IMG/VR virus record: IMGVR_UViG_3300048919_000048 | Location: 64,001 to 128,000 of that record | From: a virus | DNA length: 64,000 bases | Reading direction: 5' to 3' (one strand) | Part shown: one piece after another, positions 2,639 through 39,689 of the stretch | Position numbering within the stretch: the first letter of the stretch is position 1 | Layout: each line of letters begins with the position of its first letter | Notes under the pieces: model-generated | Seen by the model: the letters and a program-made list of their open reading frames with translations, nothing else | What the model was told of the DNA's origin: nothing | Databases searched by the model: none | Program-made: the position numbers and the translations under genes

Positions 2639-3280
2639 ATGAACGAGATCCTTATTATTGGGGGCCAGAAGAAACGGAATGTAATTTTGGAAGTGGATGC
2701 AACCAGGCAGTCCTTGGGTGCTACGACCCTGACAGACTGGACCGGGAACAATGTGTTCTCTCTGGTCGGCACAGGGGCCAAAATTGCAGACGTAACTGGA
2801 ATCGGTCGGGTAATGGACTTCACTGTTGGGTCGTCCTTCTTCCAGACAGGACTCCCCGTTGATCTTTCAACGGAACCAATGATTATCGACATCATCTTCC
2901 AAAGCATTAACTCCTCAGCTACCCAGATGGTCTGGTGTACCGGGGATTATTCAAGCCGTATTGTTGCTGGGCTTGGTCATTATGCAATGGTGGGTGTCGG
3001 CAGTCACCAGCTTTTCCCAACGGATGCAGCGGGTAACTTTGTCCGCTGTTCAATAAACGGTACGGTCAGTCAGGTATTTGACCTGACGATCCAAACTGAT
3101 CCGGTTGCTAAAACACTCCGGGTCAAGAATAACACGTCGGGTTTGATTCAGAACTTCAACGTTCCGTTCTGGTTTGGTGCCGGGGAAAGACTTTCAGTAG
3201 GCGGAAGCTACGTAAGCGGCGTGGGGTCTGGATTGCTGAGAGGCTACGTTAAGAAGCTGGTTGTTTCAAAAGTAAGTTGA
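2639..3280 (+). CDS. beta-rich lectin/LamG-like protein, putative fibre tip
   Basis: Beta-rich composition; N-terminal MNEILIIGG shared with 39027-39689. Confidence 0.55.
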   Translation: MNEILIIGGQKKRNVILEVDATRQSLGATTLTDWTGNNVFSLVGTGAKIADVTGIGRVMDFTVGSSFFQTGLPVDLSTEPMIIDIIFQSINSSATQMVWCTGDYSSRIVAGLGHYAMVGVGSHQLFPTDAAGNFVRCSINGTVSQVFDLTIQTDPVAKTLRVKNNTSGLIQNFNVPFWFGAGERLSVGGSYVSGVGSGLLRGYVKKLVVSKVS

Positions 3281-3310
3281 TTTAAAACCGGGGCCATGTA
3301 TAATGGCCCC
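3277..3310 (+). promoter_or_regulatory. sigma70-like promoter with -10 inside a palindrome
   Basis: TTGATT-16-TATAAT; GGGGCCAT-GTATA-ATGGCCCC; 23-mer repeated at 51751. Confidence 0.7.
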
Positions 3311-3335
3311 ACATTAAACAGACGAGGAAGATAAG

Positions 3336-3710
3336 ATGAGCATTTTCGATAACACCTTTGTTGAGCCGGGCTGGGTTTGTGTTCAGGCACAGAAGAACAT
3401 TACTCGCTCCGAGGAATACAAATACGTTAACCTTAACCTAATCTACGAACTGGACCAGCGTCAGGTTGAAGTAGGGGCGTCATACGCCATCAACGTCGGC
3501 GGTCAGGTGTCTCGTGAGGTTCCGGTTAAGATGCTCATCAAGATGTACAGCCTGTCTGGTGATGTAACGGAAGAACCTGAAGTCCTCTTCAAACGTTCAC
3601 TGAGGGCATATCGCCCGGATCAGATGACGGAGGAGATGATCAAGGACATTAATGCTGCAAACTTGATGTTTGACAAAGCAGACAAAGAGGTGCAGCGAGT
3701 CTATCTGTAA
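3336..3710 (+). CDS. hypothetical protein
   Basis: ORF with GAGG RBS after promoter. Confidence 0.75.
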   Translation: MSIFDNTFVEPGWVCVQAQKNITRSEEYKYVNLNLIYELDQRQVEVGASYAINVGGQVSREVPVKMLIKMYSLSGDVTEEPEVLFKRSLRAYRPDQMTEEMIKDINAANLMFDKADKEVQRVYL

Positions 3711-3719
3711 GGAGAGAGA

Positions 3720-3905
3720 ATGAACAAATTACTGGCAGGTTTAGGTCTGGGATATTTGGCAGTTGTGATCGCGGCGTTTGCAGCTTGGGTCACCCACGTT
3801 GTGGTGTGTATCAAGACGGCATCTTGGCTGTTCCTGATCGCAGGCGCTATCCTGGCCCCGATCGGTGTTATCCACGGTATTGGCGTGTGGTTCGGCATCT
3901 TCTAA
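3720..3905 (+). CDS. small two-TM membrane protein
   Basis: AGGAG RBS, hydrophobic. Confidence 0.75.
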   Translation: MNKLLAGLGLGYLAVVIAAFAAWVTHVVVCIKTASWLFLIAGAILAPIGVIHGIGVWFGIF

Positions 3906-3984
3906 GTTGCAAATCGCAGTAAATGTGGTAACCTGTTGTTCTGGCCTCGTTCTGGGGCCTTGTTTATCCTCGAAGGAGAAGTGA

Positions 3985-5253
3985 ATGTCTGAAGTCAAAG
4001 TAATTACTGCCGTCTATGATGCCATCAACGATGTTAACGTCCACATCGCAACTGGGTCCATTGAGCGTATCGCCATCAAACGTATCAATGCCGACGGCAG
4101 TCCTAAGGTGACCAACATCACCAAGGGTCCAAGCGCTGGTAAATCCATCGTGGCGACCCACCGCGCTTCCATTCTGCTGAAAAATGGTGAAGACCAAGAG
4201 TGGATCAGCTTCGGCACCCACGAAGTCAAAAACCTGAAGTACGAAAACCAGTACCAGATTAAGGTCGATGACAAATGGACCGATCTGAAAGAAGGTATGG
4301 TTATCCGTGTTCCGGTTCAGATCCGTAAGTGGACCGATGCAGAAGGTAAAGAACGTTCCGGTGCGGAAGGTAAAAAGGCGAAGATCAAAATCACCGATGC
4401 TTCTGGCGCTCGTGAACCTCGTCAGGCAAACAACGCAGGAAGCTCTCAGGCGTCCTCTACGGCGTCCAATAGCTCTGGTGGCAAAACCACTAAGGTTTAC
4501 GGAGAAATCCTCTCTCTGAGCGATACAGGTGCTGTGGTGAAGGATGAGAACGGTAATGAGGTCTCCGTTGTCCTGACCAAAGAGCAGATCGGTCAAGTTC
4601 AGGCAGGTGGTCGCTTGGCAGGCCAGCGTGGCGAAGACGGTTCCATCGTGTCCGGTTTCAAAGCATACGGCCCGAAAGGTTCGGCCCCGGCGGGTGGTAG
4701 CCGATCCGGCGGTAAGAAAGATAACTCCGGTATGGAAACAGGTCATGCACTTAACGGTGCCCTTAACCTGCGCCGTAGCGGCCTGACTATCCCTCCGGTT
4801 GTTGAGGTAGCCAAAGTTGTTCATGATGTTACCAAACATCTGAAACTGGATGCGGCGAACAATCCGGCAAACAAAGGTATGTCTGATTACGATCTGGGCG
4901 CGATGGTTGGTCACGCTGTTCTGAACGCAACCCGAGATATTCAGGTTGGTGAAAATGACAATCCGGAAGAGATCACTGGTAAACTGCTGGCATATGCCCG
5001 TGGCCTTATGAGTGAAGTTGTCCCGGGTGTGTCTGCCTACGTTAAAGGTGAACAGCCAAACAACTTGGAGCAGACTGCACAGTCTCAACCAGACCCTAAA
5101 CTGGAGCCAAAAACTGAACCCCAGCAGACGGCCCCAGCAGTAAACGACAACGGTCACCTCGATATGTCTCCTCCGGACATTGATTTCGATGATGACATTC
5201 CGTTTGCCCCGATTTGCCTGATGTATCCTAATCATGCAATCTATGCCTTGTAA
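3985..5253 (+). CDS. putative single-stranded DNA-binding protein
   Basis: Beta-rich domains, low-complexity linkers, PPDIDFDDDIPF SSB-like acidic motif. Confidence 0.6.
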   Translation: MSEVKVITAVYDAINDVNVHIATGSIERIAIKRINADGSPKVTNITKGPSAGKSIVATHRASILLKNGEDQEWISFGTHEVKNLKYENQYQIKVDDKWTDLKEGMVIRVPVQIRKWTDAEGKERSGAEGKKAKIKITDASGAREPRQANNAGSSQASSTASNSSGGKTTKVYGEILSLSDTGAVVKDENGNEVSVVLTKEQIGQVQAGGRLAGQRGEDGSIVSGFKAYGPKGSAPAGGSRSGGKKDNSGMETGHALNGALNLRRSGLTIPPVVEVAKVVHDVTKHLKLDAANNPANKGMSDYDLGAMVGHAVLNATRDIQVGENDNPEEITGKLLAYARGLMSEVVPGVSAYVKGEQPNNLEQTAQSQPDPKLEPKTEPQQTAPAVNDNGHLDMSPPDIDFDDDIPFAPICLMYPNHAIYAL

Positions 5254-5719
5254 GATTTGTTTTAAGTGCGGGGCTGAAAAGCCCCTCACCGAATTCTATA
5301 AGCATAAAGGCATGGCTGACGGACATCTTAACAAGTGCAAGACCTGTACAAAGAAGGATGTCAGCGAGAACAGGGAAGATAAAGGAGAGTATTACAAGGA
5401 ATACGAAAAATCCCGTAATAAACTCCCGCATCGTGTTCAGGCCAGAAAGGATTATGCCCGAACTGAGGTCGGTGCTAAAAGTATCCAAAAGGCAAAGGAT
5501 TCCTATATCAAAAGGAACCCTAAAATCCGTGCGGCGCATATTGCTGTGGGGAATGCTGTCCGCGATGGTAAGTTGACAAGGGCGTCGTATTGCGATGTGT
5601 GCCGGGAGAATCTATTCACCGAGGCGCATCACTGCGATTACAACAAACCCCTTGAGGTGATGTGGTTGTGCGACAGATGCCATAAGGATTGGCACTTGAA
5701 CAATGACCCGATTTATTGA
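5234..5719 (+). CDS. HNH-type endonuclease
   Basis: CFKC..CKTC Zn site; HHCDYNKPLEVMWLCDRCHKDWH. Confidence 0.75.
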   Translation: MQSMPCKICFKCGAEKPLTEFYKHKGMADGHLNKCKTCTKKDVSENREDKGEYYKEYEKSRNKLPHRVQARKDYARTEVGAKSIQKAKDSYIKRNPKIRAAHIAVGNAVRDGKLTRASYCDVCRENLFTEAHHCDYNKPLEVMWLCDRCHKDWHLNNDPIY

Positions 5720-38744: not shown

Positions 38745-38747
38745 AAA

Positions 38748-38836
38748 ATAATCAGGGACTTGCGTTACTCCAGTATCGGAATCCACATTGAGTACGCCTA
38801 CTCAACCCTACTCACATTCAACCGGAGCCTGATTAT
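38748..38836 (-). ncRNA. putative structured ncRNA
   Basis: ATAATCAGG/CCTGATTAT closing stem, CTCCGGT/ACTGGAG, TTGAGTA-GGCG-TACTCAA. Confidence 0.5.
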
Positions 38837-38841
38837 CTATT

Positions 38842-38928
38842 TGGCAGAAGAGGAGAGACTTGAACTCTCAGGCCCCTAGGGACCCCGGATTAGCAGTCCG
38901 GTGCGGCTACCAATTTCGCCACTCTTCT
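38842..38928 (-). tRNA. tRNA-Ser(GCT)
   Basis: CCGGA CTGCTAA TCCGG, long variable arm, GCCA. Confidence 0.9.
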
Positions 38929-38932
38929 AAAT

Positions 38933-39025
38933 TGGCGGAAGATAATAGAGTCGAACTATCACCGTGGGGTCGCCACAGCGGGCCGGGGTTCAAATCCGGG
39001 TGCGTACCACTACGCCCTATCTTCC
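38933..39025 (-). tRNA. tRNA-Ser(TGA)
   Basis: Loop TTTGAAC, long variable arm, GCCA. Confidence 0.85.
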
Positions 39026-39026
39026 A

Positions 39027-39689
39027 TTATTTGATAGAAATCCAAGCCGTTTTAGTGTTTGTCGGGTAGGTTGAATTTCTGAAAAGTGTAAGAGGTGCTG
39101 CGCCAGCTCCACCTTGTGCGTTAACAAAGGCTGAAAGTTGGGCATCACTGACGGGCTGGAAAAACACTTCAACTCCGTCCAAGGAAAGATGGATTCCATC
39201 GCTTCCCATATAATAAGAGATAAGATGCCAACCCGTCTTTACGTTTTCCGTCCCGGACATCGGGTTTGCTTGACCATTCCAGCCATAGAAGCAAACCCTT
39301 AATTGATCACTTACCAACTTTAGCCCGAAAGACCAATAGTTTATACCGGAATTCTGAACCATGAATCCGATCAGGGTGGGGTGGATCTGGTTAGGATAAA
39401 CATCATTCACCCTATCAACATAAACCATGGCGTCTACCCTTGCCCCTCTTCGAAAGGCAGATAAGTTTGACCCGTAGTTGTACGAGATGTATCCGTTATT
39501 TGATTGAATAACATCGTTACCACCAAACAATGTCTTTGTTACACCAGAATAACCTGTTGGAGACCTATTACCAGACAAATCGGGATTCATGCCATTCTGA
39601 GCCGAGGCCAAGAACAAGCAAGTCGATGGATCTGGCGGTGGAAGATACACGCCCGCCGGGCGACCACCAACCATTAGAATTTCGTTCAT
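39027..39689 (-). CDS. LamG/concanavalin-like protein inside tRNA array, putative fibre tip
   Basis: Start MNEILMVGG with GAGG RBS; GWHLISY..IHLSLDG LamG-like strands. Confidence 0.7.
   Translation of the reverse strand: MNEILMVGGRPAGVYLPPPDPSTCLFLASAQNGMNPDLSGNRSPTGYSGVTKTLFGGNDVIQSNNGYISYNYGSNLSAFRRGARVDAMVYVDRVNDVYPNQIHPTLIGFMVQNSGINYWSFGLKLVSDQLRVCFYGWNGQANPMSGTENVKTGWHLISYYMGSDGIHLSLDGVEVFFQPVSDAQLSAFVNAQGGAGAAPLTLFRNSTYPTNTKTAWISIK

Follow-up and report, generated by a model that had tools for sequence, protein, structure and literature searches.

The T-even phage protein gp38 is encoded by a single gene beside that of gp37, attaches via a folded N-terminal domain, and has a fold with glycine-rich receptor loops. 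In phage T4, the prohead protease cleaves off the capsid-targeting sequence of the internal proteins IPI to IPIII and Alt at a conserved L/I-x-E site, and these proteins are carried inside the capsid. In Klebsiella podophages of the KP32, K11, and KP34 type, the secondary receptor-binding protein RBP2 has a conserved N-terminal docking peptide, with which it attaches to the T4gp10-like branching domain of RBP1 (PMC6872550; PMC13352976). RBP2 is no longer incorporated after deletion of its first 29 residues, and the peptide can also bring a foreign enzyme onto the virion (PMC13352976). Arrays of genes for RCC1-like proteins have been mentioned for Rak2-like phages, without the N-terminal peptide that is the subject of this report (PMC7247149, PMC5259590). 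The DNA analyzed here (“the window”) is a stretch of 64,000 nucleotides, bases 64001 to 128000 of a 151,943-bp (152-kb) phage genome. It contains two genes, P0001 and P0002, which encode proteins with a common start of nine residues in front of dissimilar bodies. This start is one example of a short N-terminal peptide (“tag”), for which the RBP2 peptide of the KP32-type phages is, by analogy, the closest known precedent, closer than the T-even pair gp37/gp38.

The phage is a Certrevirus of the Vequintavirinae, and its genome is, patchwise, about 80 to 86% identical to those of DU_PP_I, CR3, CR8, KaOmega, phiTE, and CB7. P0001 (positions 2639 to 3280 of the window, plus strand) encodes 213 amino acids (aa) with the tag in residues 1 to 9 (positions 2639 to 2665), followed by a short polar linker and a body that begins at residue 14. 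P0002 (39027 to 39689, minus strand) encodes 220 aa with the tag at positions 39663 to 39689 and is located within the tRNA array, between the genes for tRNA-Ser (38933 to 39025) and tRNA-His (39703 to 39778). Seven of the first nine residues are identical in both proteins (M-N-E-I-L, then G-G), and the two residues in between are hydrophobic, I-I or M-V, which are conservative exchanges (I/M and I/V). A BLASTP alignment of the two proteins was limited to the first 11 residues. The identical residues are encoded by different synonymous codons. An earlier note on this DNA had pointed to both open reading frames (ORFs) and their common start, to the synonymous codons, and to the position of the second gene inside the tRNA array; all of these observations held, that of the codons on the nucleotide sequence. 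The longest ORF of P0002 (39027 to 39827, minus strand) reaches 46 codons farther upstream, through the tRNA-His gene. The true start codon of P0002, with a GAGGTG ribosome-binding site, is the ATG at 39689, and mechanical ORF calls are misleading there.

Evaluation of this common start within the single genome gave a result that was only moderately beyond chance. P0001 and P0002 are the sole ORFs with a start of the M-N-E-I-L-h-h-G-G type (h, hydrophobic) in the 151,943-bp genome, as a check of the whole genome for further such starts revealed. When the N termini were shuffled (n = 20), a pair with six of eight identities after the Met occurred 0.05 times per genome, so that the match was suggestive rather than overwhelming. 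The comparative data make it solid, beyond this single-genome statistic. A start composed of M-N-E plus four hydrophobic residues is kept across the P0002 family, down to 48% identity, and the start is also kept in close relatives of P0001. The G-G is not kept in the P0002 family, where this position is often occupied by S or another residue. The start is thus conserved across relatives, but the motif MNEILxxGG, as formulated in the earlier note, was too narrow with respect to the G-G. Apart from P0001 and P0002, only one other real gene pair reached this level in the genome-wide comparison of N termini, the tail sheath (21705 to 23126, minus strand) and a 1093-aa collagen fiber (27438 to 30719, minus strand), which share six of the eight residues after the Met.

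The bodies behind the tags are of a common fold type, again without detectable similarity in sequence. The AlphaFold2 model of P0001, calculated from an alignment of 37 sequences, had a mean predicted local distance difference test (pLDDT) score of 91.6. Residues 1 to 13 were a coil, with a pLDDT of 52 for this block, and the first strand (residues 14 to 20) was the start of the body. The model of P0002 was weaker (pLDDT of 70.9) but of the same kind of fold, with residues 1 to 8 below 50. In both models, the tag peptide is predicted to be outside the fold. Foldseek placed both proteins into the concanavalin A (ConA)-like lectin/glucanase superfold, a two-sheet jelly roll, with a probability of 1.0; the matches were GH16 and sialidase lectin domains, galectins, AbnA domain 4, lectin subdomains of the neurotoxin HCN type, and the Pan3 tailspike. 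The profile of the P0001 family matched neurexin LNS/LamG domains (E of 1.2e-5), while a Pfam search with the single P0001 sequence was without a match. P0002 matched Pfam Laminin_G_3 weakly (E of 0.026 and 15.1 bits, with a cut-off of 27.6). No homology between the two bodies was detectable by hhalign, with a probability of 12.7% for shallow profiles and 0.3% for a deeper profile, and a remote homology of the bodies, by which paralogy would explain the common start, is unsupported by these values. The description of both bodies in the earlier note as dissimilar, beta-rich, and lectin-like agrees with these results.

Both genes are accessory genes. The slot of P0001 is empty in phage DU_PP_I and that of P0002 in the group of Enterobacter phage F1M1E. 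P0001 belongs to PHROG 6011 (“virion structural protein”) and P0002 to PHROG 31204. The slot of P0002, after a tRNA gene and ahead of membrane protein or lipoprotein genes and the terminase, is that of CB7_251 of phage CB7 and pTE203 of phage phiTE, although no homology between P0002 and the slot-equivalent CB7_251 was detectable. The distance to the gene for the long tail fiber is 3.7 kb for P0001 and 30 kb for P0002. Directly upstream of P0001 are a lipoprotein-like gene with a lipobox (2033 to 2323, plus strand) and a gene for a membrane protein with a weak likeness to superinfection immunity proteins (2320 to 2637, plus strand; PHROG 1039, E of 1e-6), the stop of which overlaps the start of P0001.

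Two classes of tags could be distinguished. In class A, about four hydrophobic residues come after M-x-E, and class B is M-[LIF]-P-F-[PA]-x-h-h-x-Y-G-N. No phage paper was retrieved when the literature was searched for the class B motif. An exhaustive HMMER search among 1.8 billion proteins yielded 38 representative clusters of the P0001 family, 34 of which are 210 to 228 aa long. Among the 37 aligned members, 24 carry a class A and 12 a class B tag; the bodies are homologous throughout, and the first 8 to 12 residues differ by class. On a maximum-likelihood tree calculated from the bodies only, the tag class changes at least two to three times on well-supported branches, and 7 to 8 times by parsimony. 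This indicates that the peptide was exchanged repeatedly on homologous bodies. Since its members carry either tag, the P0001 family also links the tag systems of the Vequintavirinae and the Rak2-like phages. The residues that follow the tags of both classes vary freely, and a conserved Glu-type cleavage site, as for a capsid-targeting sequence of the T4 type, was not found there.

The class A tag is also present on other bodies. In this genome, class A contains P0001, P0002, and a 386-aa RCC1-like protein encoded at genome positions 150642 to 151802. A looser match is the start of an orphan 237-aa protein encoded by a gene beside that of the DNA polymerase (genome positions 56227 to 56940), which had no relatives in the phage collection, the PHROGs, or Pfam and may be assigned to class A less surely, by its start, beta-rich sequence, and slot only. 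Elsewhere, class A tags head LamG-type bodies in CR3_059 (above the Pfam threshold) and CB7_251 (a weak match), a propeller-like body in CR3_063, an RCC1-like body in KaOmega (at 101668) as in the 386-aa protein mentioned above, and a body of the CB7_55 type in CB7, KaOmega (gp63), and GEC (gp177). The genes are dispersed: phage CR3 contains at least six class A genes, spread from 36 kb to 147 kb, and scattered class A genes exist also in 4MG and GEC_vB_MG.

The class B tag is found on relatives of the RCC1-like protein encoded in the window, in CB7, CR8, DU_PP_I, KaOmega, and GAP31, and in tandem arrays of jumbo phages. In the Xanthomonas jumbo phage XbC2, 11 consecutive genes possess the same 12-residue class B tag, the copies of which have 141 synonymous codon differences. 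The bodies in this array are RCC1 (two), LamG, P0001-like, CB7_55-like, and kelch-like ones plus unknowns, one of them of 688 aa; the XbC2 paper does not discuss the array. The Serratia jumbo phage BF contains a P0001-like (LamG-like) gene and flanking genes for RCC1-like proteins with the same start. Five further jumbo phage genomes from IMG/VR possess clusters of 2 to 11 class B starts, with 3 to 12 matches per genome in all, compared to 0 to 2 matches for the reversed pattern as a control. A class B tag that is a mere “velcro” strand closing a propeller was rejected, as LamG, kelch-like, and other bodies carry the identical tag. In phage BF, the fiber-type genes BF_0225, BF_0223, BF_0222, and BF_0221 (128341 to 140616) share another N-terminal module, of the M-Y-N-I-K-T-D-I type.

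Tagged proteins of relatives are constituents of the virion. The proteome of CB7 contained 26 virion proteins confirmed by tandem mass spectrometry, including CB7_55, CB7_251, and CB7_37 (Table 4 and section 2.7 in PMC7344957); the authors pointed out that, of the structural genes, that of CB7_55 alone is located outside the structural module (PMC7344957). CB7_55 carries a class A tag, and its gene adjoins that of the DNA polymerase. CB7_37 is the class B-tagged RCC1-like protein encoded behind the fiber gene. The gene for CB7_251 is located after a tRNA gene and before membrane protein or lipoprotein genes and the terminase. The annotation places its start at 141337, with an in-frame class A start 30 codons upstream (141247; ORF 141247 to 141891). 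The longer form is conserved in its full length in phiTE, PcCB7V, and Salmonella phage SSBI34, in the latter with 48% identity, so that the tagged start is probably the real one. The phiTE homolog of CB7_251, pTE203, was, after the Pagoda protein, the most abundant virion protein that remained unidentified (PMC11972413); pTE203 and the RCC1-like pTE242 are both absent from the models of phiTE obtained by cryo-electron microscopy. In phage GAP32, the RCC1-like gp1 was confirmed by mass spectrometry (PMC5259590).

The class B gene of the window is P0003 (5755 to 6921, minus strand), directly downstream of the gene for the long tail fiber (6960 to 8687, minus strand; 575 aa), which is homologous to the phiTE long tail fiber and to CB7_36. 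P0003 encodes a putative RCC1-like beta-propeller of 388 aa, with the class B tag as its first 12 residues (positions 6886 to 6921). The earlier note had mentioned an analogous start of hydrophobic residues and then G-G in this gene, which is indeed present and represents the second type of tag. P0003 is a homolog of CB7_37, a protein confirmed by mass spectrometry as outlined above. It reached an E of 9e-14 with Pfam WD40_RLD, below the curated cut-off, 21.0 bits with RCC1 (cut-off of 21.7), and an E of 1e-78 with PHROG 4219; profile matches in the PDB were HERC2, RPGR, and UVR8. The order of a long tail fiber gene followed by a gene for a class B RCC1-like protein is conserved in this phage, CB7, phiTE, DU_PP_I, CR8, KaOmega, and the Seunavirus GAP31, thus in two genera.

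A domain of about 110 aa at the C terminus of the fiber (positions 6963 to 7340) is conserved across the Vequintavirinae and the Rak2-like jumbo phages, in 245 phage records. It was found in all tag-carrying groups, in phage BF as the end of the “proximal subunit” of the long fiber. A search for related loci with the single C-terminal sequence gave none; with an alignment of this domain, 10 loci were obtained, mostly in jumbo phages. This domain is a reasonable candidate for the acceptor of class B tags, with a link that is correlative only. In the jumbo relatives examined, the gene for the proximal subunit of the long fiber is followed by a conserved gene for an untagged 212-aa protein. Next to P0003 in the window, a Cys-rich, HNH-like ORF of 161 aa (5234 to 5719, plus strand) overlaps the end of the SSB gene (3985 to 5253) and is absent or replaced in relatives.

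To understand the biological meaning of the tags, these data can be combined into a model. The comparisons show that the tags are shared, portable, selected at the protein level, predicted to be located outside the fold, and present on proteins that were found by mass spectrometry in the virions of relatives, so that a portable address tag for the virion is well supported. P0001 and P0002 would then be two-module accessory virion proteins, each with an address peptide of 8 to 10 residues and a stand-alone binding-type body. The class A peptide, composed of Met, any residue, Glu, and about four hydrophobic residues, would be followed by a short Gly or polar linker and a jelly roll of the ConA/LamG type. 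Most likely, a single acceptor site on the particle receives the peptides of these proteins, and any gene that gains the tag, wherever in the genome, would have its product built into the virion. The class B tag may have this role in the RCC1-like protein from the gene behind the long fiber and in the products of tandem arrays of 3 to 11 genes in Rak2-like jumbo phages. In this model, the tag would mediate the incorporation, the site of attachment would be external, and the bodies would bind host surface structures; for class B, the conserved gene order favors the fiber tip as this site. That an 8- to 10-residue class A peptide loads accessory binding-type bodies onto the virion is, as a whole model, on balance probable. 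The earlier note had proposed interchangeable tips that dock onto a fiber by a short peptide and may be encoded anywhere in the genome. Part of this is supported by the portable peptide on unrelated bodies, the dispersed genes, and the tagged proteins in virions of relatives; the fiber tip as the docking site and a role in host range, which belong to the same proposal, are more speculative.

Comparison of this model with the known systems reveals likenesses to each of them. As in RBP2 of the KP32-type phages, a conserved N-terminal peptide common to secondary virion proteins is separable from the body, and the head modules are exchanged. The KP32-type peptide has about 29 residues of unrelated sequence, whereas the putative docking tags have 8 to 12 residues. 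The KP32-type bodies are trimeric beta-helix depolymerases beside RBP1, one or two per phage, in contrast to small bodies with a lectin fold or propeller, several to a dozen per genome, dispersed or arrayed. Moreover, Pfam scans did not find the gp10-like branching domain in the fibers. A likeness to gp38 and gp37 is the separately encoded, exchangeable binding protein, and the class B RCC1-like gene is located right behind the fiber gene, as is that of gp38. However, the P0001 and P0002 jelly rolls are encoded far from the fiber gene, and only the RCC1-like gene is adjacent, with a predicted propeller fold of its product. The analogy to gp37/gp38, drawn as a loose one in the earlier note, is indeed loose. 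Compared to the Rak2-like jumbo phages with their tandem arrays of class B genes, the genes here are single and dispersed in variable slots, most of them with class A tags. New are the class A tag and its dispersed layout in the Vequintavirinae, the exchange of both tags within a single family of bodies, and the finding that tagged proteins correspond to virion proteins of CB7 and phiTE that had been “out-of-place” or unassigned.

Several points weigh against the model of an address tag for the virion. The evidence for presence in the virion concerns CB7_55, CB7_251, and CB7_37 of relatives and not orthologs of P0001 or P0002, and the label “virion structural protein” (PHROG 6011, RefSeq) is not traceable to an experiment. 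Both genes are located in contexts of the early or middle type, outside of the late structural operons: P0001 overlaps the stop of the Imm-like membrane gene, and P0002 is situated among tRNA genes. The class A pattern is short and loose, and a relaxed regular expression matches also a baseplate gene and internal starts, so that borderline class A members, such as the orphan protein encoded beside the polymerase gene, may be over-called. A low N-terminal pLDDT is common and alone no proof of a free peptide. Pfam scans of the fibers and baseplate proteins for a T4gp10-like branching domain were negative, with no fold-level search made, and searches of solved structures for virion models with tagged proteins gave only the phiTE fiber itself.

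The function of the tag may be as proposed but the site another one. The lectins and propellers could be Hoc-like decorations of low occupancy on the capsid surface, at the hexamer centers or on the Pagoda protein. The window contains a gene for a Pagoda-type decoration protein of 131 aa (26352 to 26747, minus strand), the N terminus of which is homologous to CB7_12 and pTE217, and one for a collagen-bearing paralog of 269 aa (25499 to 26308, minus strand), with an N-terminal anchor of about 35 residues, collagen repeats, and a globular C-terminal domain that resembles collagen-like or “protease” proteins of unrelated phages. CB7 has a single gene at the position of these two. The common anchor of about 35 residues ends in a tag-like stretch and a glycine linker. 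It is class A-like in the 131-aa protein, with the sequence x-T-E-L-F-E-G-S-G-G, and class B-like in the 269-aa protein, where residues 28 to 39 match the class B tag of CB7_37 at 9 of 12 positions. The density of the Pagoda protein in phiTE is asymmetric and lower on some hexamers, and pTE203 has no assigned place in the structure, although the virion contains it. Related jumbo phages rich in RCC1-like genes show “hairy” appendages on capsid and tail. Nevertheless, the resemblance of anchor and tag concerns short stretches and could be chance, and the gene for the class B RCC1-like protein adjoins, in conserved order, that for the long tail fiber and not the head genes. A location on the capsid surface is considered quite unlikely.

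With the same small probability, the tag may be a capsid-targeting sequence, and the tagged binders may travel inside the head and enter the cell together with the DNA, where they could, for instance, inhibit defense proteins of the host. As in the T4 internal proteins, an N-terminal tag of about 10 residues is found on diverse, polymorphic proteins. These proteins are variably present and were detected in virions by mass spectrometry, and their genes are located among early and replication genes. T-even phages possess a polymorphic internal-protein locus, and RCC1-type propellers include the protein inhibitor BLIP-II. Unlike the T4 sequence, however, the tags are not followed by a conserved protease motif, and the bodies look like surface-binding modules of the adhesin or carbohydrate-binding type, such as LamG/LNS, Pan3 tailspike-like, and CB7_55 domains, the last of which other phages possess as a part of large virion proteins or of “glycosyl hydrolase” proteins. 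The synteny of the class B RCC1-like gene with the tail fiber gene also argues against internal cargo.

Still less probable is a start that has nothing to do with the virion, for instance, an element for folding, oligomerization, or translation initiation, or a remnant of a paralogous jelly-roll ancestry or of recombination. The bodies of P0001 and P0002 are of the same fold class and of similar length, ConA-like lectins often oligomerize, and the shallow profiles could be aligned weakly over the first 75 columns, including a D-x-[ST]-G-N motif. This alignment was not upheld as homology by the deeper profile comparison. The same tags are located on propellers, kelch-like bodies, and other folds and were swapped on homologous bodies, the synonymous codon differences argue against a recent transfer of DNA, and three tagged proteins were confirmed in virions by mass spectrometry. 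Finally, a mere chance resemblance of two short N termini, with about 0.05 such pairs per genome in the shuffles, is effectively refuted by the comparative data, since the tag is conserved within each family to about 48% identity and recurs on many bodies in many phages.

Returning to the model of an address tag, its widest version would be an address code of two letters, the tags of class A and class B, in the Vequintavirinae and the Rak2-like jumbo phages. Small binding modules, with genes at any place in the genome and free to change between the tags, would snap onto a conserved acceptor, for instance, the C-terminal knob of the long tail fiber, and form on each particle a mixed, evolvable set of adhesins that governs host range or surface adherence. 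In this extent, the model is speculative and unlikely to be correct in all its parts. Should the tag indeed be a plug for docking, it would account for the “orphan” structural proteins of Certrevirus that are encoded outside the structural module, identify unassigned virion proteins of phiTE, and explain the upkeep of arrays of RCC1-like genes by jumbo phages. A handle of about 10 residues would then be available with which large myophages could be made to display binding modules of choice, as with the KP32 docking peptide but in a different and much larger group of phages. The concrete prediction is an acceptor site on a virion, that of phiTE, the core structure of which is already solved.

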